This document shows, piece by piece, positions 7,636-55,894 of a stretch of DNA of 64,000 nt. The notes beneath the pieces are model-generated. The model did no database searches and had not been told where the DNA came from. It saw only the letters and a program-made list of their open reading frames with translations. Position 1 is the first letter of the stretch. Every line of letters starts with the position of its first letter. Origin of the DNA: Acidimicrobiia bacterium (GTDB taxonomy: Bacteria > Actinomycetota > Acidimicrobiia > Acidimicrobiales > JANYDT01); assembly GCA_031423635.1 (NCBI GenBank), contig JANPFX010000077.1, positions 6,344 to 70,343 on the forward strand. Reading direction: 5' to 3'. A program made the translations under genes and the position numbers.

Positions 7636-8589
7636 ATGACCGGGCCGTCCACACCTCGGGTCCTCATCGACTGCGATCCCGGTCACGACGATGTCTTCGC
7701 GATCGCCGTCGCGGCGCAGCACTGTGCCATCGTCGGGGTCACGACGGTAGCGGGCAACTCTCCGCTGACGAACACCACCCGTAACGCGTTGATCGCCATG
7801 GATCTGTTCGGTCTGCACTTCGTGCCGGTGCACAGCGGGTCTGCAGTACCGGTGAATGGTCAAGAGGGACGCTATCCCGAGGCGCATGGGCGTTCCGGTC
7901 TCGATGGGCCGGTGCCCCGCACACCCTCGCGCGGTGTCGACGGGACCGACGCCGTATCGTTCATCATCGACACGGTGCGGGCGACCGAAGGATTGTGGCT
8001 CGTCCCGATCGGTCCCCTGACCAACATCGCCCTTGCGCTGCGCCGCGCCCCCGACATCTCGCGACGAGTGGCCGGCATCTCGATCATGGGTGGGTCACTG
8101 ACGCACGGGAACATGACGAGTGCGGCGGAGTTCAACATCTGGTTCGACCCCGAGGCCGCCGACGAGGTGTTCCGGTCCGGCGCGCCGATGATGATGTGCG
8201 GCCTCGACCTGACCCATCAGGTAGCGGCCGACGGGAGATTCATCGACGCGTTGGAGTCGCACGGGACCGACACCTCGCGTTTCTGTGCCGAGCTGATGCG
8301 CTTCTACCACGGGTACTCAGCGCGCTTAGTTCACCTGGAGGGCGAGTCCGCGTATCGTCACCGGGTCCCGATGCATGATCCCTGCGCGGTGATGGCGATC
8401 ACCCATCCGCACCTCTTCACCGTCGAACGCCTGCACGTCGTGGTCGAGACTGCGGGGACGCACACCCGGGGCATGACCCACCCGGACCTCCGCCCGTGGG
8501 CCGACCCGACCCGTGCGAACGTCGACGCTGTCGTCGTCGCCCGCCGTGATCAGGCGCTCGATGTCGTTCTTGGCGCCCTGATGCGTTGA
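7636..8589 (+). CDS. nucleoside hydrolase (inosine/uridine-preferring family)
   Basis: N-terminal Asp cluster VLIDCDPGHDD, with TNIALAL and AEFNIWFDPEAA segments. Confidence 0.85.
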   Translation: MTGPSTPRVLIDCDPGHDDVFAIAVAAQHCAIVGVTTVAGNSPLTNTTRNALIAMDLFGLHFVPVHSGSAVPVNGQEGRYPEAHGRSGLDGPVPRTPSRGVDGTDAVSFIIDTVRATEGLWLVPIGPLTNIALALRRAPDISRRVAGISIMGGSLTHGNMTSAAEFNIWFDPEAADEVFRSGAPMMMCGLDLTHQVAADGRFIDALESHGTDTSRFCAELMRFYHGYSARLVHLEGESAYRHRVPMHDPCAVMAITHPHLFTVERLHVVVETAGTHTRGMTHPDLRPWADPTRANVDAVVVARRDQALDVVLGALMR

Positions 8590-8677
8590 CGGTGATCGTC
8601 CGCCGGCCCGGGCCGGCCTTCACCAGCATCGCGGTTGGGATCGGTTGCCCAACGGTCGGAACCGGTCGCCATCTGCG

Positions 8678-8825
8678 GCTGAACGCCTCCTAGCCACGTT
8701 CGGAGGTGTTCTGCCCCCATATATGGGGGCAACCTCTCTCCCAGTGGCACCGGCCACTCGTGTTGCGAGCAGTCGAGCGAAGCGAGCGGCGCAGCGCCAT
8801 TGAACAGAGGGGCAACCTCTCTTCC
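8678..8825 (+). repeat. modular intergenic repeat, copy 1 (hairpin - palindrome - A box - 66-nt segment - A box)
   Basis: Degenerate hairpin 8678-8714. Palindrome GCCCCCATATATGGGGGC at 8713-8730. GGGGCAACCTCTCTCCC at 8726-8742 and GGGGCAACCTCTCTTCC at 8809-8825. The core GCCACTCGTGTTGCGAGCAGTCGAGCGAAGCGAGCGGCGCAGCGCC lies between the two boxes. Confidence 0.9.
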
Positions 8826-8829
8826 AATG

Positions 8830-9228
8830 TCAGTGGAGGTCGTCGGGGCCGAAGGAGTCGGGGAGGATGTCGTCGAGGGTTTTGATGCCGCCGACGCCTT
8901 TGACGAGGAGTTGTTTGCCGCCGTGTTCGAGGAGCAGCTGGCGGCAGCGGCCGCACGGGGCGAGGACGTAGCCCTCGGCGTGGACCGCGACGAACGCCAC
9001 GAGGCGTCCACCACCGCTCGCCATGAGCGACGACACCAGCCCGCACTCGGCGCAGAGCCCGAGACCGTAGGACGCGTTCTCGACGTTGCAGCCGGTGACG
9101 ATGCGCCCGTCGTCGACCAGAGCGGCGGCGCCGACCGGGAACTTGGAATACGGGGCGTAGGACTTCTCGGTCATGGCGAGCGCCGCGGCGTGCAGCGCAT
9201 CCCAGTCGACGGTCGGGGGAGAGGACAC
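8830..9228 (-). CDS. cdd: cytidine deaminase
   Basis: Zinc motifs CAECG and PCGRCRQ, plus YAPYSKFPVGAA. GTG at 9228 lies 4 nt after the stop of the upstream permease. Length is 132 aa. Confidence 0.85.
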   Translation of the reverse strand: MSSPPTVDWDALHAAALAMTEKSYAPYSKFPVGAAALVDDGRIVTGCNVENASYGLGLCAECGLVSSLMASGGGRLVAFVAVHAEGYVLAPCGRCRQLLLEHGGKQLLVKGVGGIKTLDDILPDSFGPDDLH

Positions 9229-31099: not shown

Positions 31100-31187
31100 G
31101 CCGGTTGTTTCTGCCAACGCGGCCGGGCGCTTCGTCGCTCCCTCGGTGGATTGTTCCGCGCGCTGAGTGATCGGGGAGGATGGTCGC

Positions 31188-33140
31188 ATGCGTGAACGCG
31201 ACCAGCCGTGGGTGATGAGGACCTACTCGGGCCACTCGACGGCCCGGGCGTCGAATGCGTTGTACCGCACCAACCTCGCCAAGGGCCAGACCGGCCTCTC
31301 GGTGGCCTTCGACCTTCCGACGCAAACCGGGTATGACCCGGGTGATCTGGCGGCCAATGGCGAGGTCGGCAAGGTCGGCGTGCCAGTGGTGCATCTCGGC
31401 CACATGCGCGAGCTGTTCGCCGACATCCCGCTCGAGTAGTTGAACACCTCGATGACAATCAACGCCACAGCGGCGTGGTTGCTCGGTCTCTACGTCGCCC
31501 TCGCGGATGAACGCGGCATCGACCCGGCGGTGCTGGCCGGCACCACACAGAACGACATCGTCAAGGAGTACCTGTCCAGGGGTACCTACATCTACCCACC
31601 TGAGGCATCGCGACGGCTCATCGTCGACATGGTGGCCTACACCGTGCATCACGTTCCGAAGTGGAATCCGATCAACGTGTGCAGCTACCACCTGCAGGAG
31701 GCCGGGGCCACCCCCACGCAGGAACTGGCCTACGCGCTTGCAACGGCGATCGACGTGCTCGACGCCGTGCGGGCGTCGGGTCAGGTGAGCGAGGCCGAGT
31801 TCGCCGAGACCGTCGGCCGGATCTCGTTCTTCGTCAACGCCGGCATCCGCTTCGTGGAGGAGATGTGCAAGATGCGCGCCTTCACGCAGATGTGGGAGCG
31901 CATCTGTGTGGAGCGCTACGGCGTCACCAACCCGAAGTTCACCCGCTTCCGTTACGGTCTCCAGGTGAACTCGCTCGGCCTCACCGAGGCGCAACCGGAG
32001 AACAACGTGCCGCGCATCGTGCTCGAGATGCTCGGCGTCACGCTTTCACGCGATGCGCGTGCTCGCGCCGTGCAGCTTCCGGCGTGGAACGAGGCGCTCG
32101 GTCTGCCCCGACCATGGGATCAGCAATGGTCACTGCGCATGCAGCAGATCCTCGCCTTCGAAACCGACCTTCTCGAATACGACGACCTGTTCACCGGCTC
32201 GGTTGTCGTCGAGGCGAAGGTCGCCGACATGATTGCCGCGGCGCAGTCCGAGCTCGACGACGTGCTCGGCCTCGGTGGCGCCTTCGCTGCAATCGATGAA
32301 CTGAAGGCCCGACTCGTACGTTCGCATACGGAACGCACCCGTCGCATCGAGAGCGGTGATCTCATCGTCGTCGGCGTGAACCGTTTCACCGAGACGACCG
32401 ACTCACCGCTCGGTGGAGCCGAGAGCATCTTGAAGGTCGACCCTGCGGTCGAAGCCGAGGCGATCGCCGAACTCGCAGTCTGGCGAGCGCAGCGTGACCA
32501 GTCGGCGGTCGATGCCGCGCTTGCCGACCTCCGGAACTGCGCACAGGATGGCTCGAACGTGATGCCGGCGACGATCGTCGCCGCCCGTGCCGGCGTGACG
32601 ACGGGGGAGTGGGCGCAGGTGCTGCGTGAGGAGTTCGGCGAGTTCCGTGCTCCCACCGGTGTCGGCGGTGCGAGCGGGACCGCGCGTCGCTCACCTGGCA
32701 TGGTGGCACTGGCGACGCGCAACAAGGCGCTCGCCGGTGGCCCGCCGCGGCTGCTCGTCGGCAAGCCCGGGCTCGACGGCCACTCCAACGGTGCCGAGCA
32801 GATCGCCGTTGCGGCTCGTGACGCTGGCATGGAAGTCATCTACGAGGGCATCCGGTCCACCCCGCAGCAGATCGCCGCTGCGGCCCGCGACGAGGACCCC
32901 GACGTGATCGGGCTTTCGATCCTCTCCGGGTCACACCTCACGATGGTTACCGAGGTGATGGATCTTCTGCGCGCATATGATATTGATGCGCCGGTGGTCG
33001 TAGGCGGGATCATTCCGGAGGACGACCGCGCCGTGCTCACCGCGGCTGGGGTGCGAGCGGTCTACACACCGAAAGACTTCGATCTCACGAAGATCATGGA
33101 GGAACTCTCCGACCTCGCCGCCGCAGGCCGGGTGCGCTAG
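31188..33140 (+). pseudogene. meaA: MeaA/Ecm-type (ethylmalonyl-CoA mutase-like) B12-dependent acyl-CoA mutase, interrupted by in-frame TAG at 31437-31439
   Basis: ORFs 31167..31439 and 31440..33140 are in the same frame and read ...DIPLE*LNTSMTINATA... RTYSGHSTA lies at the N-terminus. The C-terminal B12 domain has GKPGLDGHSNG (DxHxxG). Confidence 0.8.
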
Positions 33141-39398: not shown

Positions 39399-40022
39399 AT
39401 GCGTATGACCCGAACCCGCGCAGCTGTCGCTGTCGCCGCCCTCGCCCTTACCTTCGGGCTGGCCGCCTGCGGCAGCGATTCCGCCGACACCACGGCAGCC
39501 CCGGCCGAGACGGAAGCGGTGGCCGCCGAGACCGAAGCCCCGGTCGAGACCGAGGCCATGGCCGCAGAGTCGGAAGCGGTGGCCGCCGAGACGGAAGCCG
39601 CTGCGGCAGCCGATGCGCCGAAGGACATCATCGATACCGCCGTTGCCGCCGGCAGCTTCAACACGCTGGCCAAGCTCCTCACCGATGCCGGTCTCGTGGA
39701 GACCCTGAAGGGCGAGGGCCCGTTCACCGTGTTCGCCCCGACCGATGAGGCTTTCGCCGCCGTCCCGGCCGACACCCTCGCCGCCCTCGGCGCCGACAAG
39801 GCCCTTCTCACCAAGGTCCTGACCTACCACGTCGTCCCGGGCAAGGTATTGGCCGCCCACAGCGCCGCCGGCGTTGACGCCACCGTGGCCGGTCCGACCG
39901 TCAAGCTCTCCATCGTCGACGGCAAGGTCATGGTGAACGACGCCACCGTCGTCACCGCCGACGTTGCTGCGTCGAATGGTGTCATCCACGTCATCGACAA
40001 GGTGCTCCTCCCCCCGGCGTGA
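39399..40022 (+). CDS. fasciclin (FAS1) domain lipoprotein
   Basis: Lipobox LAAC after [20 protein letters not shown], then an Ala/Glu/Thr-rich linker. FAS1 core [10 protein letters not shown]...VLTYHVVPG...[13 protein letters not shown]. Confidence 0.85.
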
Positions 40023-40101
40023 GCATCCTGATGTCGTGATCGGCCCCGGGCCGGTGGTCCCCCCCTCCACCGCACCCGGGGCCGTTTCGCGTCCGGACAC
40101 T

Positions 40102-40334
40102 GGGAGAGAGGTTGCCCCCTCTGTTGTTTGGGCGCTGCGCCGCTCGCTCCGCTCGACTGCTCGCAACACGAGTGGCGCCGACATTGGGAGAGAGGTTGCC
40201 CCCTCTGTTGTTTGGGCGCTGCGCCGCTCGCTCCGCTCGACTGCTCGCAACACGAGTGGCGCCGACATTGGGAGAGAGGTTGCCCCAATGTATGGGGGCA
40301 GAACACCTCCGAACGCAGCTCGGAGGTGTTCTGC
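40102..40334 (-). repeat. modular intergenic repeat, copy 2 (inverse orientation; A box x3 with perfect 84-bp tandem unit x2, then palindrome and hairpin)
   Basis: GGGAGAGAGGTTGCCCC at 40102, 40186 and 40270, with identical 67-nt segments between. GCCCCAATGTATGGGGGC at 40282-40299. Hairpin GCAGAACACCTCCGA-n7-TCGGAGGTGTTCTGC at 40298-40334. Confidence 0.95.
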
Positions 40335-40365
40335 AGCATCGGACGGACGCCCCTACCGTTGTCGG

Positions 40366-41523
40366 ATGGTCCGGGTCTCGACACGCTCGCAGGTGCCGCC
40401 GTTCTATGCGATGGCCATGGGCGCGCTCGCCGAGGCGCGTCAGACCCAAGGCCACCGGGTGCTGCACCTCGAGGTCGGACAGCCGAGCGGTGGCGCCCCA
40501 GCAGGAGCGCGAGCCGCCGCCGCCGAAGCGCTGACCCGTCGAGCCCTCGGCTACACAACCTCGCCGGGCCTCCCCGAACTGCGGGCACGCATCGCCCGCC
40601 ACTACGACCATTTGTACGGCGTCGGCGTCGACCCGCGCCAGGTCAGCGTCGTCGGCGGTGCATCCGGCGGATTCGTCCTTGCCTTCCTGGCGTGCTTCGA
40701 CGTGGGTTCTCGCGTAGCCCTCACGGAGCCCGGCTATCCCGCGTACCGCAACACCCTCGACGCCCTCGGGTGCCTTCCGGTGGGCATCCCCATCGGCCCA
40801 GACACCGGATACCGGCTCACGGGATCGGCCATCGAGTCAGCCCATCGGGCCGCGCCTCTTGACGGATTGATCATCGCGTCTCCGTCCAATCCCACCGGCA
40901 CCCAACTGAGCGACAACGACCTCGTCGACATCGTCTCGACCTGTCACCGTCTTGGCATCACGTTGATCGCCGACGAGATCTATCACGGCATCACCTACGA
41001 CACACCGGCGTCCACCGTGCTCTCGCACACGGGAAACGTCGTCGTGCTCAACAGTTTCTCGAAGTACTTCGGCATGACCGGATGGCGTCTCGGATGGATC
41101 GTTGCCCCGCCCGAACTCGTTGATCCCATCGATCGCCTGGCCCAGAACCTCTACATCTGCGCGCCCCATGTGTCGCAGGTCGCCGGGCTCGCTGCGTTCG
41201 ACTGCGCCGACGAACTTGACGCCCGTGTCGTGGAGTTCGCCGAGAAGCGTCGCGTTCTCCTCGACGGACTTCACCGCGCCGGCCTGACCGACACCGCACC
41301 ATCCGACGGCGCCTTCTACGCCTACGCCGACGTCTCCCATCTGACCGGCGATTCGTGGGGCTTGTGTCGGCAGTGGCTCACCGACATCGACGTCGCCGTC
41401 ACGCCCGGTATTGATTTCGACCCGGTTCGCGGCCACCGGTTCATCAGGTTCTCCTACGCGGGATCACTCGACGACGTGCGTGAAGCCGCCGAGCGCATCG
41501 CTGCGTGGACGTCGACGCGCTGA
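40366..41523 (+). CDS. pyridoxal-phosphate-dependent aminotransferase (class I/II)
   Basis: Start MVRVSTRSQVPPFYAMAM. The PLP-lysine region is NSFSKYFGMTGWRLGW. Length is 385 aa. Confidence 0.85.
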   Translation: MVRVSTRSQVPPFYAMAMGALAEARQTQGHRVLHLEVGQPSGGAPAGARAAAAEALTRRALGYTTSPGLPELRARIARHYDHLYGVGVDPRQVSVVGGASGGFVLAFLACFDVGSRVALTEPGYPAYRNTLDALGCLPVGIPIGPDTGYRLTGSAIESAHRAAPLDGLIIASPSNPTGTQLSDNDLVDIVSTCHRLGITLIADEIYHGITYDTPASTVLSHTGNVVVLNSFSKYFGMTGWRLGWIVAPPELVDPIDRLAQNLYICAPHVSQVAGLAAFDCADELDARVVEFAEKRRVLLDGLHRAGLTDTAPSDGAFYAYADVSHLTGDSWGLCRQWLTDIDVAVTPGIDFDPVRGHRFIRFSYAGSLDDVREAAERIAAWTSTR

Positions 41524-41630
41524 CGACCGTGCGGCGAGCGCTGCGCCGACGCGCCGAAGCTCGACCCCGTGAGTCGAGCGTTTCAGCCCCGTGGCGAGTG
41601 GCCTGTCCCCCGGCGACCACGCACCGAGTG

Positions 41631-43331
41631 CTATCCCCAGTAGGCGTCCGACCAGACGTTGCCGGTCCACGTTGCACCTGACCAGGTCGCGCCCGACCAG
41701 GTGGACCCGGACCAGGACGAGCCAGACCACGAAGACCCGGACCACGAGGAACCCGACCACGAAGACCCGGACCACGAGGAACCCGACCACGTGGAACCTG
41801 ACCAGGTACCGCCGGCCCACGCCGTGAGGGTGAGTTCGGCCTGAGCTTGGGCGGGGCCGTTGTAGGGCTTGGCGAAGATGTCCAAGTCGCCGTTCAGTTC
41901 GATCCCGTTGTGCACGAGTCGTGACGAACCGCGGGCGGCGTCGAGGGATCCGCCTCCGAGGAGGGTTACCTTCGGCGGGTTGGTGGCGGACCAGATCGTT
42001 GGCGAGTTCCGGGCCAGGCGCAGGTCAAGGGCGCCCTTGCCCTGCATCTCCGGCTTGACCTTCTTGAGCTTGATCGTCGATTCCGTCAGCGCCTGCTTCA
42101 CCGAGTCGGGTGTGATGGAGGGATTCTGCTGAACGAGCAGAGCGGCCGCTCCGGAGACGATGGCCGACGCCTGGGACGTACCGCTGCCGCGGAACAGCTG
42201 CTCGTTGATGTACCCGGTGCCGCCGTGCTTGGTGTCGATGGTCGAGCCGGGTGCCCGGAGGCTGACGATGCTCTTCCCCGGAACGACGAAATCGGGGCGC
42301 CGGGCCTTGCTGCCGTTCGACGAGAAGCTGGCGATCTCGTCCCATTCCCGCGGATTGGAGGCTGCGGTCTGACCCAGCGCACCGACGGCGATGATCGTGC
42401 CGGTGCGGGCCGGGTTGGTCATGGTGCTGCGCTTGTCGGCCCAGCCGGCGTTCCCGCTGGCGGCGACCACGACGATGCCCCGGCGCCAGGCCTGGTCGAC
42501 GGCGAACGACAGCGGGTCGATCTTGACGTCCTGGGTGGAGTCCGTGCCGTAGGAGAGGTTCATCACCCGGATGTTCAGGCCGTTCTTGTTGCGGTTCGCG
42601 ACGACCCAGTCGATCGCCGCGATCACCTGAGAGACATCGGTGGAACCGTCCTTGTCGGCGACCTTGACGCTGACGATGCGGGCATCGGGGGCCACTCCCA
42701 CGAAGCCGCTGGTGGGGTCGCTGAGCGATGTGCCCGCCGTCCGTCCGGCGATGAGGCCGGCCATGTGGGTGCCGTGGCCGTAGGTGTCGACGTTGCGCTT
42801 GGCCGGGTCCTGCGACTCGAGGGAGAGGTCGGGTCCGAACAGCACGCGGTTCGCCGGCAGCGCGTCGCTGATCCGAACACCGGAGTCGATCAGGGCCACG
42901 TCGACGCCGCGGCCGGTGATGCCGGCGTTCCAGTACGCCGACGAGCCGATGATCTCGCTCACGTTCTTGGGGCCGCCCACGTCGGTGTAGGGGTTCCAAG
43001 CCTGGCTGAGCGGTCGAACGACCTCGTTCGGGGTGACCGATCGGATGCCGGGAACGCGACGAAGTCCGGTCAGGTCGCGCTGATCGACGGTCGCCGCGAT
43101 CCCTCCGACGATATCGAGGCGGCGGGTGACCCTCCCTTTCACTCTGGCCACGGCGTCGACGGCACGTCCGACCTGGCCGGGATCAGCCGTGACGATGACC
43201 GAGACCGGTCGATCGGCGGCGACGGCCGGCTGAGGTCCGGTGACAACGAGGACCGGTGCGAGACCCAGCGCGCCGAGTGCAGCGATGGAGTGGAGGCGTG
43301 TCCGTTTCACTCGCGATCCATCGGCAACCAC
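41631..43331 (-). CDS. secreted S8 (subtilisin-like) serine peptidase with C-terminal Trp-repeat tail
   Basis: Catalytic triad contexts VALIDSGV, HGTHMAGLIAG and GTSQASAIVSGAAALL. A signal peptide is present and an alternative GTG start lies near 43310. Confidence 0.9.
   Translation of the reverse strand: MVADGSRVKRTRLHSIAALGALGLAPVLVVTGPQPAVAADRPVSVIVTADPGQVGRAVDAVARVKGRVTRRLDIVGGIAATVDQRDLTGLRRVPGIRSVTPNEVVRPLSQAWNPYTDVGGPKNVSEIIGSSAYWNAGITGRGVDVALIDSGVRISDALPANRVLFGPDLSLESQDPAKRNVDTYGHGTHMAGLIAGRTAGTSLSDPTSGFVGVAPDARIVSVKVADKDGSTDVSQVIAAIDWVVANRNKNGLNIRVMNLSYGTDSTQDVKIDPLSFAVDQAWRRGIVVVAASGNAGWADKRSTMTNPARTGTIIAVGALGQTAASNPREWDEIASFSSNGSKARRPDFVVPGKSIVSLRAPGSTIDTKHGGTGYINEQLFRGSGTSQASAIVSGAAALLVQQNPSITPDSVKQALTESTIKLKKVKPEMQGKGALDLRLARNSPTIWSATNPPKVTLLGGGSLDAARGSSRLVHNGIELNGDLDIFAKPYNGPAQAQAELTLTAWAGGTWSGSTWSGSSWSGSSWSGSSWSGSSWSGSSWSGSTWSGATWSGATWTGNVWSDAYWG
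41634..41810 (-). repeat. 15-nt (5-aa) tandem repeat inside the S8 peptidase gene, about 12 units of x-x-W-S/T-G
   Basis: Translation GTWSG STWSG SSWSG x5 STWSG ATWSG ATWTG NVWSD AYWG. The DNA shows a 15-bp periodicity of CCAGGA/CCACGA units. Confidence 0.9.
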
Positions 43332-43364
43332 TCTCCGTGACCAAATGAGTCGTTCGGTTCGTTC

Positions 43365-46010
43365 CTACCCTGGACCGCTCGGACGGTGATGGGCCGCCCG
43401 GATCAGCGGTTCAGTGATCCTTGGCCTGCCCGACACACTGCGGACGGCCAGGCCGGCCGTGCCGCAGGTCAGATCGTCGACCAGCGCACCCAACGTCGTC
43501 GGGGCGCGCAGCCCCCGCCCCTGCATCCACGAGCACCCGAGTGCGCGGGCGGCCGCCACGTCGCGGTTGCTCTCGATTCCTTTGGCCACCAGTCGGAAAT
43601 CGAAGACCTCGCCGAGCTCGGTGAGTGCCCGCACGACGGGCATGACGGCAGCGTCCGACAGACCTCCGACGGTGGTGCGGGCGAGCTTCACGATCAACGG
43701 CCGGACGTCGGCGAGGAGTTGGAACGGCACGTCGTCGAGCTCGAAGTCGTCGAGCGACACGGCGACGCCGAGCTCGCGAAGGGTGCCGACGCGGCGGAGC
43801 ACCGCCTCGGTTGAGCGGCGAAGCGCACGAACGGGGATCTCGAGCACCAATCGGTTGAGGTGGTCGGGCGCCGTTTGGCGGCGCACGACTTCCGCGAACG
43901 AGTCGCGGCTCAGCTGGGTGAGGCCGAGGTTGATGGCGACCGTGACGTCAGGGAAACCCTCGGTCTGTTCCAGAGCGTCGGCGATGCTGCGCAACACGAA
44001 CTCGTCGATGATCTCCGCGGCCGCCCCGTCGGTCAAACCGACGAGGAAGTCGTCGGGCCCGAGTACACCGTGCACCGGATGGTTCCATCGCAGGAGGCCT
44101 TCGATGCTCACGATTGCGCCGGTGGTGGTGTCGACCACCGGCTGGTAGGCCATCGAGAACTGGTCGAGAGGCACGTGCTGGGCCAAGTGGTTCGCGAGCT
44201 CGGTGCCGCGACCGTTCACCCCTGCCCGTTGGGGATCGATGACTTCGACGGCGTTCTTGCCACGGGCCTTTGCCCGGTACATCGCCTGATCGGCCCGGTC
44301 GAGGAGCGCGGCGAGATCGTCGCCGTCCACCACGACCCCGATTCCCACCGTCGCTCTCGGGGCGACCTCGATCCCGCTCGCCAACAGCATCGGCTGACGG
44401 ATCACCTCGAGCAGCCGCTGGCCGCGAAGGTCCAGTGACTCTTGACGCGCGTTCGGGTCGAAGAGCAGGGCGAACTCATCGCCCGAGAGGCGGGCGGCCG
44501 ATTCGGTCGAAGTGATTGCGGATTGGATGCGTCGACCGATCGTGACCAGCATGGCGTCACCGGCGGCGTGTCCGAAGGAGTCGTTGACGTTCTTGAAGTC
44601 GTCGAGATCGATGATGGCAACAGCCCACCGACCTCCGTTGACCCCTTTCGTGTTGATGACCTGTCGCGCCGCTCGGGTGAATGCTGACCGATTGAGCAGC
44701 CCGGTGAGTGGATCATGCTGGAGCTCGTGGACGAGCCGGCGCTCCAGATCGCGCAGCTCGGAGATCGACGCCATCTGGCGCTCGTTCTCGATGAGCGACC
44801 CGATCTGGGCGGCCAGGGCGAAAGCGAGCGGAAGGTCCCGGGCGTCGAAGGCGTCGACCCCCTCGACTTCCGAACCGATCAGCAGGACGCCGTCAACCAG
44901 ATCCGGAACGTGGACGGGTACGACCAGACCCGAACGCAGACCCCGCTCGAGGATGGCGCGGCTCAGGACGTCTTCACCGAGGTCGCTGGCGTTGCGCATG
45001 TCGGCCGTCCCGGCGGGCGGGATCGACACGGCGTCGAGGAGTCCCGGCGTCGCACCCTGTCCGTTGCGTTGCGGGCTCTGGGCGTGTCGGCGGTTCCCGC
45101 CGACGTTCAGGGCGACTTCGACGTGGGAGAACCGGAGGTCCCGCTGGGCGTTTCCGATCAATGCGGTGAGTGTGTGCTCGGTCGCCTCGGCGTGGCGCAG
45201 GGCTTCGGTCGACCGGTGGAGGAATTCCATCTCGCTCTTGCGCTGCCGCTCACGCTGGTAGACGACGTTGGATGAGTAGCCGATGAAGAACGGGACGAGC
45301 ATCAGCGGGGTGGCCACAGGTGTGGTCGACGCGAGGGCCGCCGTCGCCATGCCGACTGCCGCTGTTGCCAAGCTCGCCAGCGCACTGACGAACACCGAAG
45401 GGAGCATCTCCGACGCGGGGAGCTTCTCGCCGCTCACCCGAACCACGAGAACGACGAGCATCGAACCGCAGACGGAGAACACGACACAAGCGACGAACCC
45501 GAACGTGATGGCGCGAAGTGTCGTCATCGACGAGATGTTGCCCAGATCGAGGACCAGCGCCGCGAGTTGCGAGCACAGCACGAACGTCGCGGCGTTGAAG
45601 GCAACTTTGAGCAGGGGTTGGCGACGGAGGAATCGCAGCGTCACGCATCCGCCCAGCACGACCGCGCCGATCGTCGGACCATGTCCGAGGTGCAGCAGCG
45701 AGAGGAGCACGACGCCGTCGGTGAGCGAGATCGAATGTGCCGACCGGCCGAGGTGGATGTGGACGACGAAGGCCTCGGCCAGGGCGAACAGGGCAACCAT
45801 GCCGACCCAGCCACTCCAGCTGGACCACGCAGGATGCGCCACAGGGGGACCGTGGGTCACGGCGAACAACGCGAGGCCGACCGCCAAGATCAGAACGGAC
45901 AGGACCCAGATCTGCGGTGCCCGGGACCGCCCACGGCCGACCGGCAACAGTTCAGACTGGTTCCCCGACGCGACCGTCGTGACCCTCCCGTCGTTGTTCC
46001 TGTCCGGCAC
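43365..46010 (-). CDS. membrane-anchored GGDEF/EAL (c-di-GMP) signalling protein
   Basis: N-terminal multi-TM region. GGDEF domain with variant site RLSGDEFALLF. EAL domain with EGLLRW in place of EALxR. Confidence 0.85.
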   Translation of the reverse strand: MPDRNNDGRVTTVASGNQSELLPVGRGRSRAPQIWVLSVLILAVGLALFAVTHGPPVAHPAWSSWSGWVGMVALFALAEAFVVHIHLGRSAHSISLTDGVVLLSLLHLGHGPTIGAVVLGGCVTLRFLRRQPLLKVAFNAATFVLCSQLAALVLDLGNISSMTTLRAITFGFVACVVFSVCGSMLVVLVVRVSGEKLPASEMLPSVFVSALASLATAAVGMATAALASTTPVATPLMLVPFFIGYSSNVVYQRERQRKSEMEFLHRSTEALRHAEATEHTLTALIGNAQRDLRFSHVEVALNVGGNRRHAQSPQRNGQGATPGLLDAVSIPPAGTADMRNASDLGEDVLSRAILERGLRSGLVVPVHVPDLVDGVLLIGSEVEGVDAFDARDLPLAFALAAQIGSLIENERQMASISELRDLERRLVHELQHDPLTGLLNRSAFTRAARQVINTKGVNGGRWAVAIIDLDDFKNVNDSFGHAAGDAMLVTIGRRIQSAITSTESAARLSGDEFALLFDPNARQESLDLRGQRLLEVIRQPMLLASGIEVAPRATVGIGVVVDGDDLAALLDRADQAMYRAKARGKNAVEVIDPQRAGVNGRGTELANHLAQHVPLDQFSMAYQPVVDTTTGAIVSIEGLLRWNHPVHGVLGPDDFLVGLTDGAAAEIIDEFVLRSIADALEQTEGFPDVTVAINLGLTQLSRDSFAEVVRRQTAPDHLNRLVLEIPVRALRRSTEAVLRRVGTLRELGVAVSLDDFELDDVPFQLLADVRPLIVKLARTTVGGLSDAAVMPVVRALTELGEVFDFRLVAKGIESNRDVAAARALGCSWMQGRGLRAPTTLGALVDDLTCGTAGLAVRSVSGRPRITEPLIRAAHHRPSGPG

Positions 46011-46110
46011 GGTCGAACCATCGGCACCTCGACAGGGGACATTGACTCAGCCGGGTCGATCGACCTACGACCTTGCCGGCTGCCCGGCAGCATGTCGTCG
46101 GGTGGCGCGG

Positions 46111-46317
46111 CTACGGGCGTGGGCGTCGGGTGAGGGGGTGGTTGTTCCACCAGCGGCCGGAGAATCGCCAGTCGGTCGTGGTGGAGCTCTCGGCTGCAGC
46201 GTCGACCAGCAGCACCGGCTTCGGCCAGGCCCATTCCATCGCGGCGACGATAGCGACGAGCTGGTCGTCGGTCGGAGTCGGCGAAATGTCCCGGGCAGAC
46301 GCGATCGGGCCGTTCAC
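46111..46317 (-). CDS. acyl-CoA carboxylase epsilon subunit
   Basis: 68 aa: VNGPIASARDISPTPTDDQLVAIVAAMEWAW...WRFSGRWW. GTG 46317 overlaps the pccB stop (GTGA). It is hidden inside the spurious ORF 46111..46953. Confidence 0.7.
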   Translation of the reverse strand: MNGPIASARDISPTPTDDQLVAIVAAMEWAWPKPVLLVDAAAESSTTTDWRFSGRWWNNHPLTRRPRP

Positions 46318-47870
46318 AGCGGCACGTTCCCGTGCTTGCGCTTGGGCAGCTCTTCCTTCTTGGTGCGAAGGAACGCGAGCCCACGAGTGAGCATCTTGCG
46401 GGTATCGGCCGGGTCGATCACATCGTCGATGTAGCCCCGCTCCGCGGCGACGTAGGGGTTGGCGTAGAGCTCGGTGTACTCGTCGACCAGCTCGGCCCTC
46501 CGGGCGACCGGGTCGGAAGCGGCGTCGAGCTCGCGCTTGTACACAATGCCGACGGCACCCTGCGGACCCATCACGGCGAGTTCGGCCGACGGCCAGGCGA
46601 AGCAAAGATCCGAGCCGATCGACTTCGAGTCCATGACCACGTAGGCGCCGCCGTAGGCCTTGCGGGTGATGATGCTGATGCGGGGCACCGTGGCCTCGCA
46701 GTAGGCGTAGAGCAGCTTGGCGCCGTGACGGATGATGCCGCCGTATTCCTGATCTGTGCCGGGCATGAACCCGGGTACGTCGACGAAGGTGACGAGCGGG
46801 ATGTTGAACGCGTCGCACGTGCGGACGAATCGGCCGGCCTTCTCGGAGGAGTCGATGTCGAGCACACCCGCCATGACCATCGGCTGGTTGCCGACGATGC
46901 CCACCGGGTTCCCGTCGAGTCGGGCGAAGCCGCACACGATGTTCCCGGCCCACTTCGGGAAGTACTCGAAGAACTCCCCGTCGTCGACGACCTCGCGGAT
47001 GACCTTCTTCATGTCGTAGGGCCGGTTCGGCGAATCCGGGAGCATGGTGAGCAGGGCGTCGCAGCGTCGTTCAGGGTCGTCGTCGGAGGGACTGTGCGGC
47101 GGCGCCTCGAGGTTGTTCGACGGCAGGAAGGACAGGAGGAACCGGACGTCTTCGAGACACGACTGCTCGTCGGGGGACACGAACGTGGCCACACCCGACT
47201 TGGACGCGTGCGTCGATGCGCCGCCGAGTTCTTCGAGGGTGACCTCCTCACCGGTGACGGTCTTGACCACATCGGGCCCGGTGATGAACATGTGGCTGGT
47301 CTTGTCGACCATGAAGATGAAGTCGGTCATCGCCGGCGAGTAAACCGCACCGCCGGCACACGGCCCCATGATCACGCTGATCTGCGGGACGACGCCGGAC
47401 GACTTCACGTTGCGGAAGAAGATCGCACCGTAGGACGCGAGAGACACCACGCCTTCCTGGATGCGGGCACCTCCCGAGTCGTTCAGTCCAATCACCGGCA
47501 CGCCGACCGAGGTGGCGAGGTCCATGATCTTGGTGATCTTCTCTGCGAACACTTCACCGAGCGCTCCGCCGAACACGGTGAAGTCCTGGGCGAACACGGC
47601 GACCTTGCGTCCGTTGACCTCCCCCCAACCGGTGACGACACCGTCGGTGTAGGGCCGGTCGGCCTCGATCCCCATGCCGTGGGCGCGGTGCCGGGCGAGC
47701 ATGTCGAGCTCGACGAAGGTGTCGGGGTCGAGGAACACGGCGATGCGTTCGCGGGCGGTCAGCTTGCCCTTCGCATGCTGACGCTCGACGGAACGCTCCG
47801 ACCCGGCGTTGAGGGCTTGCTGGCGGCGCTCTTCGAGTTGCGCCAATCGCGTCGTCATCGGGAAATCCAT
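46314..47870 (-). CDS. pccB: acyl-CoA carboxylase carboxyltransferase beta subunit (propionyl-CoA carboxylase type)
   Basis: QHAKGKLTARERI, GPCAGGAVYSPA and two crotonase-like carboxyltransferase halves. Length is 518 aa. Confidence 0.9.
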   Translation of the reverse strand: MDFPMTTRLAQLEERRQQALNAGSERSVERQHAKGKLTARERIAVFLDPDTFVELDMLARHRAHGMGIEADRPYTDGVVTGWGEVNGRKVAVFAQDFTVFGGALGEVFAEKITKIMDLATSVGVPVIGLNDSGGARIQEGVVSLASYGAIFFRNVKSSGVVPQISVIMGPCAGGAVYSPAMTDFIFMVDKTSHMFITGPDVVKTVTGEEVTLEELGGASTHASKSGVATFVSPDEQSCLEDVRFLLSFLPSNNLEAPPHSPSDDDPERRCDALLTMLPDSPNRPYDMKKVIREVVDDGEFFEYFPKWAGNIVCGFARLDGNPVGIVGNQPMVMAGVLDIDSSEKAGRFVRTCDAFNIPLVTFVDVPGFMPGTDQEYGGIIRHGAKLLYAYCEATVPRISIITRKAYGGAYVVMDSKSIGSDLCFAWPSAELAVMGPQGAVGIVYKRELDAASDPVARRAELVDEYTELYANPYVAAERGYIDDVIDPADTRKMLTRGLAFLRTKKEELPKRKHGNVPL

Positions 47871-47931
47871 GGGCTGTAGAACCTACCGGCGCTTCATCAC
47901 CCTGAGCGAACCCGGTGCGCACGCACACAGT

Positions 47932-47996
47932 AGGAGAGAGGTTGCCCCCATAGATGGGGGCAGAACACCTCCCAATGCCGTTGGGAGGTGTTCTGC
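47932..47996 (-). repeat. modular intergenic repeat, copy 3 (minimal: A box - palindrome - hairpin)
   Basis: AGGAGAGAGGTTGCCCC at 47932-47948. GCCCCCATAGATGGGGGC at 47944-47961. GCAGAACACCTCC-n11-GGAGGTGTTCTGC at 47960-47996. Confidence 0.9.
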
Positions 47997-48088
47997 CGCA
48001 GAACTGTGCTTCCGGGGTTGACGCAAACCATGGTCGGATGTGTCATGGACCCGGCGGCGCCGACCCGGTCGTCGCCGTTCGTCACTCG

Positions 48089-48850
48089 TCAGCTGATGTC
48101 GTAGACCAACTGCACAGAGGCGCTGACCTCGTAGCTGCCGGCCTCGATCGGAACGTCGGCCGACCTCGTCTCCGCGGCCTTGAACTGCGGCTGCGGTCCG
48201 ACGCTGGATTCGACCGACGTGCGGATCGTCCGCAGTGCGCCCAGCTTGACGCCGGCGGCCTTGGTCAACTGCTCCGCCTGGGTGCGGGCATCGGCGACGG
48301 CCAACTCGCGCGCCCGGCCCTGGGCTTTCGACGGATCGCCGATGGCGAACGACAGGCCGTTGATACGGATGGCGTCGCCGGCGACTTTGGCCACGTCGTC
48401 GATCAGCGCCCCCGAAGTGTCGAGCTTGCGGATCGTCACGGTGATCGAGTTGTTCACCTGATAGGCGGTGATGCGACGGCCGGTGGCGTCGAACTGGGGA
48501 TAGATCGAGAGTCCACTGGTCTGGATGTCGCGGGCTTCGATCCCCTTCGACTTGAGCAGCTTGTTGACGGTGGTCGCTGAGTCGTTGTTGGACCTGAGTG
48601 CGTCAGCGACCCGGGCCGCCCTCGTCTCGACCCCGAGATTGAGGATCATGCGGTCGGGTGTCTCTGCGACGCGGCCAGTTCCGTCGACGATGATCGTGCG
48701 GCCGGGGGACTTCGATGACTCAGAGGTCGAAACGTTTGCTCCTGCCGGCTGGCCGGCGAATGCGAGACCGATGGCACCGACGGCGGCAAGTCCGATGGCG
48801 AGCAGGCTGCGGCGGCGGGTGGTGGCTGAGGTGAGGGATTGCATGTTCAT
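48089..48850 (-). CDS. SIMPL/DUF541-family secreted protein
   Basis: Signal MNMQSLTSATTRRRSLLAIGLAAVGAIGLAFA (RR-containing). The body resembles 26-kDa periplasmic immunogenic protein-like sequences. Confidence 0.7.
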   Translation of the reverse strand: MNMQSLTSATTRRRSLLAIGLAAVGAIGLAFAGQPAGANVSTSESSKSPGRTIIVDGTGRVAETPDRMILNLGVETRAARVADALRSNNDSATTVNKLLKSKGIEARDIQTSGLSIYPQFDATGRRITAYQVNNSITVTIRKLDTSGALIDDVAKVAGDAIRINGLSFAIGDPSKAQGRARELAVADARTQAEQLTKAAGVKLGALRTIRTSVESSVGPQPQFKAAETRSADVPIEAGSYEVSASVQLVYDIS

Positions 48851-53875: not shown

Positions 53876-54319
53876 TCAGTGCGCCGGTCCGTTGTCCTGG
53901 ACCAGCTCGACGAGGGTGCCGAAGGTCGTCTTCGGGTGGATGAAGGCGACGGTCGTCCCGCGTGAGCCCGGGCGTGGCGCGTCGTCGATGGCTCGGCCTC
54001 CGGCCGCTTTGACGGCGGCGAGGGCGACCGCGCAGTCGGCGACTCGGTAGCCGATGTGGTGCAGACCTTCCCCCTTCTTCTCAAGGTACTTCGCCACCGG
54101 TGAATCAGGACGTGTCGGCGTGAGCAATTGGATGTAGCTCTCGGCCACCTTCAGGAGCGCCTCTTCGACTCCGTCGCTCTCGACCACCTCGCGGTGGTCG
54201 ACCGTCGCGCCGTAGACCTCGGCGTAGTAGGCGATTGCGCCTTCGAGGTCGTGGACGGCGATAGCGACGTGGTCGATCTCGGTCAGCAGGCCGGCGGACG
54301 AGGGCGGGGCAGAGCTCAT
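53876..54319 (-). CDS. methylmalonyl-CoA / ethylmalonyl-CoA epimerase (VOC family)
   Basis: IDHVAIAVHDLEGAIAYY, GEGLHHIGYRV and FIHPKTTFGTLVELV. Length is 147 aa. Confidence 0.8.
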   Translation of the reverse strand: MSSAPPSSAGLLTEIDHVAIAVHDLEGAIAYYAEVYGATVDHREVVESDGVEEALLKVAESYIQLLTPTRPDSPVAKYLEKKGEGLHHIGYRVADCAVALAAVKAAGGRAIDDAPRPGSRGTTVAFIHPKTTFGTLVELVQDNGPAH

Positions 54320-54373
54320 GGCTCCAGTCTTCTTTCGATCGCGCGGGTGCGGCAAACCATGCCCGGAAGTGCG

Positions 54374-54520
54374 GCAGAACACCTCCGAGCGCCGTTGGGA
54401 GGTGATTAGCCCCCATATATGGGGGCAACCTCTCTCCCAGTGCTACGGCCACTCGTGTTGCGAGCAGTCGAGCGAAGCGAGCGGCGCAGCGCCAGGGAGG
54501 GGAGGGGCAACCTCTCTCCC
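54374..54520 (+). repeat. modular intergenic repeat, copy 4 (hairpin - palindrome - A box - 65-nt segment - A box)
   Basis: Hairpin 54374-54410 with a decayed right arm. GCCCCCATATATGGGGGC at 54409-54426. GGGGCAACCTCTCTCCC at 54422-54438 and 54504-54520. Same 48-nt core as copy 1. Confidence 0.9.
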
Positions 54521-54532
54521 AAAGACCCGCAG

Positions 54533-55894
54533 TCAGGTGGCGTGGCGGAAGCGGTTGAGGGCGGGTTCGCCGATCTTGGCGCGGAACTCCGGGTCGTCGA
54601 TGCCCATGCCCTCCCGAGGGGCCAGGCACAGCACGCCGATCTTTCCCTCGTGCTGGTTGTGGTGGACGGCGTAAGCCGCCTCGCCGGTCGTGTCCATCGT
54701 GTGGACTGCTGACACCATCGGGTGGATCTTTCCCTGGCAGATCAGCTTGTTGGCGGCGTAGGACTCGGCGTAGTTGGCGAAGTGCGAGGACCTGATCGAC
54801 TTGAGCTTCATCCACAGGTGCCGGTTGTCGTACTCGATCATGTAGCCCGATGTCGCCGCGCACGTGATGATCGTCCCGCCCTTCTTGGCCATGTACACCG
54901 ACGCCCCCATGGTCGATCGGCCCGGGTGTTCGAACACGATGTCGGGGTCCTCGCCGACGAGCGCTCGCACGTCGGCGCCGAGGCGACGCCACTCCTTTTC
55001 GTCCTGAGTGTGGGGGTCCGACCAGAACCGGTAGTTGGCCGCCTTGCGGTCGATGACTGCTTCGCAGCCCATGGCGCGGAGGATCGCCGCCTTCTCCGGG
55101 GACGACACCACCCCGACGGGGACGCCGCCGCCGTTGAGCACGTACTGGATGGCGTAACCGCCGATGCCGCCGGTGGCGCCCCACACGAAGACGACGTCTC
55201 CCTGCTTCATCTGCGCGCCGTTGCGGCTCACCAGCATCCGGTAGCTGGTGGAGTTGCACAGAGCGTTCGACGCCGCCTCCTCCCAGCTGAGGTGACGGGG
55301 CTTGGGCATCAACTGGTTCGCTTTCACCACGGCGATCTCGGCGAGTCCGCCAAAATTGGTTTCGAAGCCCCAGATGCGCTGATTCGATCCGAGCATCGAG
55401 TCGTCGTGCGAGGACGGGTCCTGGTCGTCGACGTGGTTGCAGTGGATCGTGACCCGGTCGCCGACCTTCCAATTGCGAACGGCCGAGCCGACCCGCAGAA
55501 CGACACCTGCGCCGTCCGAACCGACCACGTGATAGGGCAGGGCATGTCGCTTTCCCCATTCGCCCTCTCGGCCGAGGCGGTCGAGGAAGCCGAACGTCGG
55601 CATCGGTTCGAAGATCGACGTCCACACGGTATTGAAGTTGATCGAACTGGCCATCATCGCCACATACGCTTCGTCCGGCGCAAGGTCGGGTAACGCAACG
55701 TCCTGCACGTGGAGGCTTTTGCGGGGATCTTTGTCCTCCGAGCGGAGCCCCTCGAACATCGCCGCGTCCTCCCGCCGCACGACGACGGCCCGGTAGCTCT
55801 CGGGAAGCGTGAGTGCTGCGAAATCCCCGGCGGGCGCGCCGGCCTCGACGAGGTCGACGATCGATTGTCCGAACGGCGTCTGGTTGCTTTGCAT
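54533..55894 (-). CDS. ccr: crotonyl-CoA carboxylase/reductase
   Basis: 453-aa MDR-family protein with CCR-typical segments WGFETNFGGLAE, VFVWGATGGIGGYAIQ and HEGKIGVLCLAP. Confidence 0.85.
   Translation of the reverse strand: MQSNQTPFGQSIVDLVEAGAPAGDFAALTLPESYRAVVVRREDAAMFEGLRSEDKDPRKSLHVQDVALPDLAPDEAYVAMMASSINFNTVWTSIFEPMPTFGFLDRLGREGEWGKRHALPYHVVGSDGAGVVLRVGSAVRNWKVGDRVTIHCNHVDDQDPSSHDDSMLGSNQRIWGFETNFGGLAEIAVVKANQLMPKPRHLSWEEAASNALCNSTSYRMLVSRNGAQMKQGDVVFVWGATGGIGGYAIQYVLNGGGVPVGVVSSPEKAAILRAMGCEAVIDRKAANYRFWSDPHTQDEKEWRRLGADVRALVGEDPDIVFEHPGRSTMGASVYMAKKGGTIITCAATSGYMIEYDNRHLWMKLKSIRSSHFANYAESYAANKLICQGKIHPMVSAVHTMDTTGEAAYAVHHNQHEGKIGVLCLAPREGMGIDDPEFRAKIGEPALNRFRHAT

Follow-up and report, generated by a model that had tools for sequence, protein, structure and literature searches.

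Our study examined a 64 000-nt stretch of DNA from an Acidimicrobiia bacterium (contig JANPFX010000077.1, positions 6344 to 70343 of the forward strand; hereafter the window), in which a composite repeat element occupies positions 40098–40338. Comparison with related genomes shows this locus to be a copy of an old, vertically inherited and clade-specific family of small composite interspersed repeats in uncultured Acidimicrobiia. The family is new and apparently uncatalogued, but it is of a familiar kind, comparable to repetitive extragenic palindromes (REPs), bacterial interspersed mosaic elements (BIMEs) and BOX elements. Our data suggest that the repeat has probably been co-opted as a hairpin module at gene 3′ ends that is recognised by its sequence, with expansion of an internal unit in the manner of a variable-number tandem repeat (VNTR).

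Anatomy and distribution of the repeat family

The element at 40.1 kb comprises, on the forward strand, two 84-nt units followed by a 73-nt terminal module, termed T. Unit 1 (40098–40181) contains the tetranucleotide CACT, a 17-nt box termed the A-box (GGGAGAGAGGTTGCCCC, 40102–40118), a 12-nt spacer, the core of a longer segment termed L (40131–40176) and a further spacer; unit 2 (40182–40265) repeats this arrangement, with its A-box at 40186–40202 and its L core at 40215–40260, and the sole difference between the two is a C at 40100 and a T at 40184. Module T (40266–40338; nhmmer E=7.7e-23) consists of CATT, a third A-box (40270–40286) running into the imperfect palindrome GCCCCAATGTATGGGGGC, a first hairpin (H1, 40282–40299), a second hairpin (H2, 40298–40334) and the tail GCAGCA. 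Tandem Repeats Finder (TRF) described positions 40096–40286 as 2.3 copies of an 84-nt period with 99 % matches. The initial annotation of this DNA had reported the boxes at 40102, 40186 and 40270, the 84-bp tandem, the palindrome and a 15-bp-stem hairpin at 40298–40334, all of which were borne out, but it had placed the limits of the element at 40102 and 40334, which proved to be 4 nt short at either end. Elsewhere in the window the exact A-box was found at 8726, 54422 and 54504 on the reverse strand, with one-mismatch copies at 8809 (reverse) and 47932 (forward). Nine matches to the box were found when up to three mismatches were allowed, where chance predicts 0.31; in 100 dinucleotide shuffles the count never rose to nine.

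T modules and L units each numbered exactly four in the window when it was searched with a profile built from 84 copies, and there were no degenerate extras, in agreement with the earlier description of three further loci carrying one, no and one long segment and lying in both orientations. At 8.7 kb, T (8674–8746) and one 83-nt A-L unit (8747–8829; L core 8753–8798, A-box 8809–8825 with one mismatch) lie on the reverse strand between convergent genes for a nucleoside hydrolase (7636–8589, forward) and a cytidine deaminase (8830–9228, reverse); the distance from the deaminase stop codon to this A-box is 7 nt according to the gene caller and 4 nt when read from the sequence (stop codon 8830–8832). 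At 47.9 kb, T stands alone on the forward strand (47928–48000), antisense to both of its neighbours, a carboxyl transferase gene (46314–47846, reverse) and a SIMPL gene (48089–48850, reverse). At 54.4 kb, T (54370–54442) and an 82-nt A-L unit (54443–54524; L core 54450–54493) are again on the reverse strand, downstream of a crotonyl-CoA reductase-like gene of the Zn-dehydrogenase family (54533–55894, reverse), the stop codon of which is 12 nt from the A-box (54504–54520), and upstream of a glyoxalase-family gene (53876–54319, reverse). The 40.1-kb element itself lies between a fasciclin-domain gene (39405–40022, forward), the 3′ end of which faces the A-box side at a distance of 79 nt, and a class I/II aminotransferase gene (40393–41523, forward; start uncertain, 40366 or 40393). 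All four window elements are intergenic and each is downstream of at least one gene.

Species-representative genomes were scanned for the exact A-box, and the loci or blocks fetched from relatives are designated by L-numbers (L001, L092 and so on). The scan matched at least 105 blocks and, among the matches listed, 82 came from five metagenome-assembled genomes (MAGs) labelled Acidimicrobiia bacterium (isolates SOY_64, VAR_48, VAR_78, OTE_8 and OTE_38), whereas the other 23, from other taxa, held a bare 17-mer without T or L and are chance matches. Approximately 94 elements were counted in these 82 blocks (~630 kb) and the window, and the genome-wide total is at least this number. The window is 86–93 % identical to the syntenic stretches of the five MAGs and therefore represents a sixth related genome, and more relatives were found in GCA_043717865.1 and the ENA scaffolds BUSI22-1. 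The element was absent from 80 distant loci that encode the reductase-like protein of the 54.4-kb locus, as retrieved by a metagenome scan (relatives with ≤76 % identity). In viral contigs there were eight chance matches to the A-box, all of them lacking both T and L, and no match to the L core, and a phage origin was rejected on this basis. Rfam returned no match at the gathering threshold over the window, with two microRNA noise matches only (E=7–8) at the locus, and a literature search for the A-box string found no paper. The proposal of an unrecognised, modular and dispersed family of the REP/BIME type, with further copies to be sought in relatives, was thus upheld. Many MAG contigs start or end in or near an element (L015:4–20, L055:3030–3046, L020:4119–4135 and the start of L040), which indicates that the family fragments short-read assemblies and that the MAG copy numbers are underestimates. 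One contig, L196 (Logan contig SRR23617201_988275), links the gene found in L002/L068 at its 3′ end via T to the aminotransferase locus, while in L195, a MAG with the same protein as L196, the aminotransferase locus follows the fasciclin gene instead; an assembly chimera spanning the repeat is the probable cause of this join, and real recombination is less likely.

Module T was gapless and of fixed length in 84/84 aligned copies, with the consensus CGTT GGGAGAGAGGTTGCCCCCATATATGGGGGCAGAACACCTCC(C/G)AACGnCGCTGGGAGGTGTTCTGCCGCA. It starts with a C-R-Y-T tetranucleotide 4 nt 5′ of the A-box, with no conservation further upstream, and ends in GCCGCA, after which the next three columns are random. 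H1 is a 7-bp hairpin (GCCCCCA/TGGGGGC) and H2 has a stem of 13–15 bp (AGAACACCTCC.../...GGAGGTGTTCT). T has a GC content of 63 % and, whichever strand is folded, an energy of −38 to −41 kcal/mol (z=−5.1 to −7.6). Across the 84 copies 32 columns are invariant and 15 near-invariant, and the arms that never vary are CACCTCC and GGAGGTG, together with CCCC and GGGG in H1. In 16S rRNA the anti-Shine–Dalgarno end reads CACCUCC, to which GGAGGUG is complementary, and the A-box (GGGAGAGAGG) is likewise Shine–Dalgarno-like.

The A-L unit is built of an A-box, a variable spacer of 10–12 nt, a 46-nt L core (GGCGCTGCGCCGCTCGCTTCGCTCGACTGCTCGCAACACGAGTG) and a second variable spacer. L is ~90 % conserved and contains three GCTCGC/GCTCGA hexamers, and on its own it has no significant fold (z=+0.1 and −0.5). 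The period of the unit is 82–87 nt across the family, and the divisibility by three remarked upon at 40.1 kb is a coincidence. The architectures recorded were T alone (56), A-L-T (19), A-L-A-L-T (one, in this window) and a symmetric form (nine), in which an inverted second H1 and A-box follow H2 to give a perfect palindrome of ~93 nt. A variant box, GGGAGAGAGATTCCATGC(A/C), was seen beside truncated L cores at L019:2600–2640, L023:6453–6500 and L061:1740–1780, which suggests a second A-box sub-family.

L also behaves as a separable unit. A variant of it, L2 (GGCGCTGCGCCCCTCCGCTGCGCTCCAATGCTCGCAACACC), occurs without A-box or T, 15–34 nt upstream of start codons. One L2 locus is single in VAR_78 (L043:706–750), an 86-nt tandem of 1.9 copies in OTE_8 (L018:5319–5523) and a tandem of the same period that reaches the contig end, with at least 2.2 perfect copies, in OTE_38 (L094:1–185), and each 86-nt unit takes in the ATG and first codons of the downstream gene. 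In L067, L2 lies between 34-nt direct repeats of local sequence spaced 86 nt apart, although TRF did not call a tandem there, and in L001 and L068 the 11 nt preceding the first A-box recur before the second. A period of 82–87 nt, made up of L and ~28–34 nt of adjacent sequence, thus recurs in two to three sequence contexts; it may arise by insertion with a long target duplication or by slippage promoted by L. One possible mechanism for the propagation of L would be an integrase-like insertion with widely staggered cuts.

Orthologous positions and placement relative to genes

For each of the four elements in the window, other species carry an orthologue in the same intergenic site. At the 40.1-kb locus the element is lacking in L198/L199, is represented in L197 by T after an apparent 5′ half of the L core, takes the form A-L-T in L092 and L195, and is A-L-A-L-T in the window. 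At 8.7 kb a single A-L unit is found in the window, L013, L078 and L041 and none in L016, and at 54.4 kb the window has one unit and L040 none. T occurs alone at 47.9 kb in the window, and also in L197, L200–L202 and L206. The number of A-L units at orthologous loci is therefore 0, 1 or 2, in line with the variable copy number that had been anticipated. As the two units in the window are near-identical, and orthologues carry one unit, the 84-bp tandem is a very recent, VNTR-like duplication of a pre-existing unit, which would have come about through slipped-strand mispairing or unequal crossover between direct A-boxes, expanding the A-L unit.

Recent spread and homogenisation were assessed by the identity of T over columns 22–73, which were not ascertained by the A-box match, with orthology assigned from downstream flanks only. 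Orthologous pairs were 86–89 % identical, compared to 81.9 % for paralogues in the same genome and 81.6 % for paralogues in different genomes. There is thus no excess of identity within a genome, and no sign of recent bursts or of homogenisation by gene conversion. Over 16 orthologous pairs, ~45 of the 73 columns showed no differences, whereas ~12 columns of T and the bases just outside it differed in 40–69 % of the same pairs. Invariant columns beside saturated flanks indicate that each copy is individually constrained at the sequence level.

The element is missing at two orthologous sites in more distant lineages, L198/L199 at 40.1 kb and L203 at 47.9 kb, both of which are too diverged for the junctions to be read. 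At the SIMPL/carboxyl-transferase site of L203 (2217–2335), which lacks T, there is an unrelated 12-bp perfect GC hairpin, the loop of which carries the A-box-like ACTGGGAGAGG on the opposite strand; this could be the remnant of a related element, or chance. In L200/L201 (2259–2479) the last ~25 nt of the SIMPL gene (ggtggttggtcttcaaacgatgtcgt, twice) are duplicated beside T in the intergenic DNA downstream of that gene.

Placement relative to genes was strongly polar. Genes in the fetched loci were predicted using a codon-usage caller trained on the long open reading frames (ORFs) of the window, with a Pfam check for window genes only; GC content at third codon positions was only 76 %. The A-box end of asymmetric elements pointed toward a gene 3′ end in 48 cases and toward a gene start in 24 (p=0.006). 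The distance from the stop codon to the A-box had a median of 11 nt, was ≤14 nt in 32/48 cases and reached a minimum of 4 nt, at which the stop codon abuts CRYT, whereas H2 ends facing a gene 3′ end lay at a median of 60 nt and within 14 nt of the stop codon in only 1/32 cases (Mann–Whitney p=1e-9). Between co-directional genes, 28 elements were sense and 13 antisense (p=0.03), and in 8/9 symmetric elements at least one A-box was 5–14 nt from a stop codon. The initial annotation had described the repeats as intergenic and always downstream of at least one gene; this holds for the four window loci but not for the family, in which 9/67 asymmetric elements typed on both flanks sit between divergent gene starts. 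At the observed spacing the foot of H1 is ~16–26 nt past the stop codon, which would place it just outside the footprint of a terminating ribosome.

Candidate role and alternative explanations

The interpretation that we favour, with about even confidence, is that the elements are selectively retained, without moving appreciably, as a transcribed double-hairpin module at gene 3′ ends that is read through its invariant letters. The elements would no longer be appreciably mobile and would be kept by selection; T would be transcribed at the end of the gene on its A-box side and would fold into a stable pair of hairpins, positioned just past the terminating ribosome's footprint. The double hairpin may then serve as a 3′-end barrier or terminator-like module, as with REP/BIME and SPRITE elements, and the A-box, together with the anti-Shine–Dalgarno- and Shine–Dalgarno-like CACCTCC/GGAGGTG arms, is a candidate recognition surface for a protein or the ribosome. 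Of the roles listed in the initial annotation, termination or stabilisation and a protein-binding array would each accord with the closeness to stop codons and with the invariance of individual sites. In a more specific and unlikely version of this proposal, T would be a sequence-specific 3′-end signal set at a fixed short distance after stop codons, its purine box and arms contacting either a dedicated protein or the ribosome during termination or recycling, and L would duplicate itself along with ~28–34 nt of flank.

Several observations weigh against a 3′-end module of this sort. In one-third of the copies the element points toward a gene start or runs antisense to the transcription around it, and the gene caller on which the placement counts depend is not a validated tool. 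The antisense copy at 47.9 kb is as well conserved across four lineages as the others, a pattern that suits a role at the DNA level, or one independent of orientation, no less well. After H2 comes GCCGCA, with no U tract, and T is consequently not a canonical intrinsic terminator; a terminator scan flagged only a weak 5-bp A-box hairpin, confined to the 40.1-kb locus. Although 91 % of cells in the H1 and H2 helices are paired, this is no better than in column shuffles (176/500 matched the observed pairing and 183/500 the covariation score, such that covariation is not significant), and mismatches of the G.U and A.C types are balanced (37:42). Taken together, the pairing and mismatch results favour neither RNA over DNA nor either strand. 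On the supporting side, mismatched A-boxes are rarer in T (3/29) than in the upstream A-box of A-L units (13/29), but the invariance of the A-box is in part an effect of ascertainment, because loci were fetched by exact A-box match.

In falling order of plausibility, the rivals to the 3′-end module are a selfish element, a duplex protein-binding site and a structured RNA. The family could consist of non-autonomous miniature transposable elements with inverted repeats (MITEs) or REPINs, copied in trans by a transposase or a REP-associated tyrosine transposase (RAYT) encoded elsewhere, in which case they would serve no purpose for the host and the positions after stop codons would be no more than tolerated insertion sites. 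We regard this as unlikely, though a serious possibility, as the repeats are palindromic and present in high copy number, and the family must have spread at some time. The nine symmetric copies have inverted A-boxes that resemble 17-nt terminal inverted repeats, the two empty orthologous sites imply at least one gain or loss, contigs often break at the elements, and REPIN–RAYT systems are likewise described as vertically inherited and long-lived. However, Pfam detected no transposase, integrase or Y1/RAYT domain among the 48 predicted genes of the window, in accordance with the initial remark that no transposase is nearby. A tblastn search with the Escherichia coli RayT protein and a scan for the HUH...Y motif likewise found no RAYT in the ~630 kb of element-bearing blocks, which represent a few per cent of each genome; the only tblastn matches were spurious (a desaturase-like ORF and an ABC-F ORF), and the motif gave zero matches. 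The genes between facing or inverted T copies are ordinary metabolic genes, none of them transposase-like; no target-site duplication or conserved direct repeat is visible at the ends of T, and the GC content of T is not that of an AT-rich element. A selfish element is also disfavoured by the lack of any same-genome excess of similarity, by the ~45 positions that are invariant between orthologues with saturated flanks, and by the spacing of 4–14 nt on the A-box side, which is far tighter than that on the H2 side. Still less plausible, and also unlikely, is an array of DNA-level binding sites, in which T and, separately, the L core are duplex targets for a nucleoid-associated or topological protein. 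BIMEs, which are bound by integration host factor and gyrase, provide a precedent, and such a role would accommodate the conservation of sequence rather than structure, the equally conserved antisense copy at 47.9 kb, and an L segment that is well conserved and carries its three hexamers despite being unfolded (z about 0). A duplex site does not, however, readily account for the strong polarity of stop-codon spacing; no protein is known as a candidate, and orthologous loci can dispense with L.

The initial annotation had suggested a small RNA. A structured RNA whose function depends on its fold, either cis-regulatory, such as an attenuator, or a small RNA derived from a 3′ untranslated region, is improbable. 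The very stable fold and the polarity of the element relative to the upstream gene are consistent with it and, as read from the sequence, an alternative structure could form by weak pairing between the A-box and the 5′ arm of H2; this pairing amounts to only 5+3 bp, however, against 13–15 bp in H2. With covariation no higher than in shuffles and no strand bias between G.U and A.C mismatches, a specifically RNA-structural reading is not supported; moreover, nothing in Rfam rises above noise at E≤10, and a third of the copies are in the opposite orientation. A reading as coding or translational-coupling units akin to mycobacterial interspersed repetitive units (MIRUs), in which small ORFs would bridge the flanking stop and start codons, is the least probable of all. 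In its favour are the 84-nt length of the unit at this locus, the intercistronic position of the elements and, in ~60 % of copies, an H1-loop ATG that a Shine–Dalgarno-like A-box precedes by 12 nt. However, the unit ranges over 82–87 nt and T is 73 nt, a length distribution on which the coding reading was rejected; in addition, conservation of the ATG is lacking (A at column 27 in 69 % of copies and G at column 29 in 87 %), no frame has a consistent stop codon, and the next start codon is 10 to >500 nt away. A clustered regularly interspaced short palindromic repeat (CRISPR) array was also rejected, as the ‘spacers’ (L) are identical or conserved, no locus has more than three A-boxes, and the window contains no cas domains.

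Window genes, known repeat systems and significance

The 48 predicted genes of the window are all ordinary chromosomal genes according to Pfam, and exact-protein look-ups of five of their products found no record. A methylmalonyl-CoA-mutase-family gene (31167–33140, forward) is interrupted by an in-frame TAG at 31437–31439 (...DIPLE*LNTSMTINAT...), its two parts matching Pfam PF01642 positions 41–122 and 124–512; the cause may be pseudogenisation, an error in sequencing or a true split of the gene. A 43-nt direct repeat (2885–2927 and 2942–2984, 91 % identical, 57 nt apart) copies the 3′ end and stop codon of a phosphoglucomutase-family gene (545–2920). Tandem repeats within coding sequence were seen in the subtilase gene (41662–41821, period 15/30/45 nt) and in the N-terminal part of the fasciclin gene (39485–39604, period 21/39 nt). 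The 4.6-kb stretch of the window at 41524–46112, which holds the subtilase gene (41631–43310) and a GGDEF/EAL gene (43365–46010), is lacking in SOY_64 (L197:2189–2343), in which the carboxyl transferase gene comes directly after the aminotransferase gene.

A comparison with all of the named repeat systems found the family to be a member of none by sequence. With REP/BIME elements it shares short, GC-rich, extragenic palindromes in many copies, mostly after genes and in composite mosaics. REPs have been proposed to act as a barrier to 3′ exonucleases, REP-containing mRNAs being substrates of RNase R and PNPase, and they reportedly act on translation if a stop codon is no more than ~15 nt away. 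However, there is no sequence similarity to REPs, and the present family has a fixed 73-nt double hairpin with an unstructured 17-nt purine box. Inverted doublets, which predominate in REPINs, are a minority here (9/~94 symmetric), the 5′ GTAG-type tetranucleotide of REPs is absent, as is RAYT from the DNA examined, and individual sites are invariant across species of ~80–90 % nucleotide identity. The resemblance to pneumococcal BOX elements is one of architecture and not of homology, in that both are composites with a tandem internal module that varies at orthologous loci; in boxA-(boxB)n-boxC the number of boxB copies varies between orthologous loci, which has been put down to slipped-strand mispairing or unequal crossover (PMC3049150). 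The two differ in phylum, base composition and sequence, and here each internal unit has its own A-box, two units being the maximum seen, while L2 also lives without A-box or T, in 86-nt tandems that include local flank. SPRITE elements of Streptococcus pneumoniae are terminator-like, are enriched near the 3′ ends of coding sequences, and their co-option by the host has been suggested (PMC3049150). T is similar to them in its location near gene 3′ ends and its terminator-like hairpin, but it has no U tract, is polar (only the A-box end abuts stop codons) and is conserved by sequence and not just as a hairpin.

Correia elements and MITEs are likewise highly base-paired and of high copy number, and the symmetric copies of our family are ~93-nt palindromes with inverted terminal boxes. 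Unlike these elements, the family shows no visible target-site duplication, is not AT-rich and has no known parent insertion sequence, and most of its copies are asymmetric, with a right end, GCCGCA, that is non-palindromic and not the inverse of the A-box. MIRUs are also actinobacterial, intercistronic and VNTR-like in unit number, and are said to carry small ORFs that overlap the flanking stop and start codons; the lengths in the present family are not multiples of three, and there is no conserved ORF.

In summary, our study describes a well-delimited repeat family from uncultured, stream-dwelling Acidimicrobiia of freshwater or cryospheric habitats, whereas, to our knowledge, small interspersed repeats have been characterised almost solely in cultured Proteobacteria, Firmicutes, Neisseria and mycobacteria. 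The features that set it apart are the stop-abutting polarity, the near letter-perfect conservation across species and the recurring duplication period of ~85 nt associated with L. With orthologues from at least six species-level lineages, purifying selection on individual copies could be told apart from recent spread, a distinction seldom available for REP-like elements. The repeats interrupt MAG assemblies and can give rise to chimeric joins, and the A-L arrays offer ready VNTR markers for the tracking of strains in metagenomes of glacier-fed streams. In high-GC Actinomycetota, hairpins without a U tract are common and poorly understood. If the role that we propose is true, the family would represent a repeat domesticated as a standard gene-end module, and it would provide a handle on 3′-end formation in these organisms.

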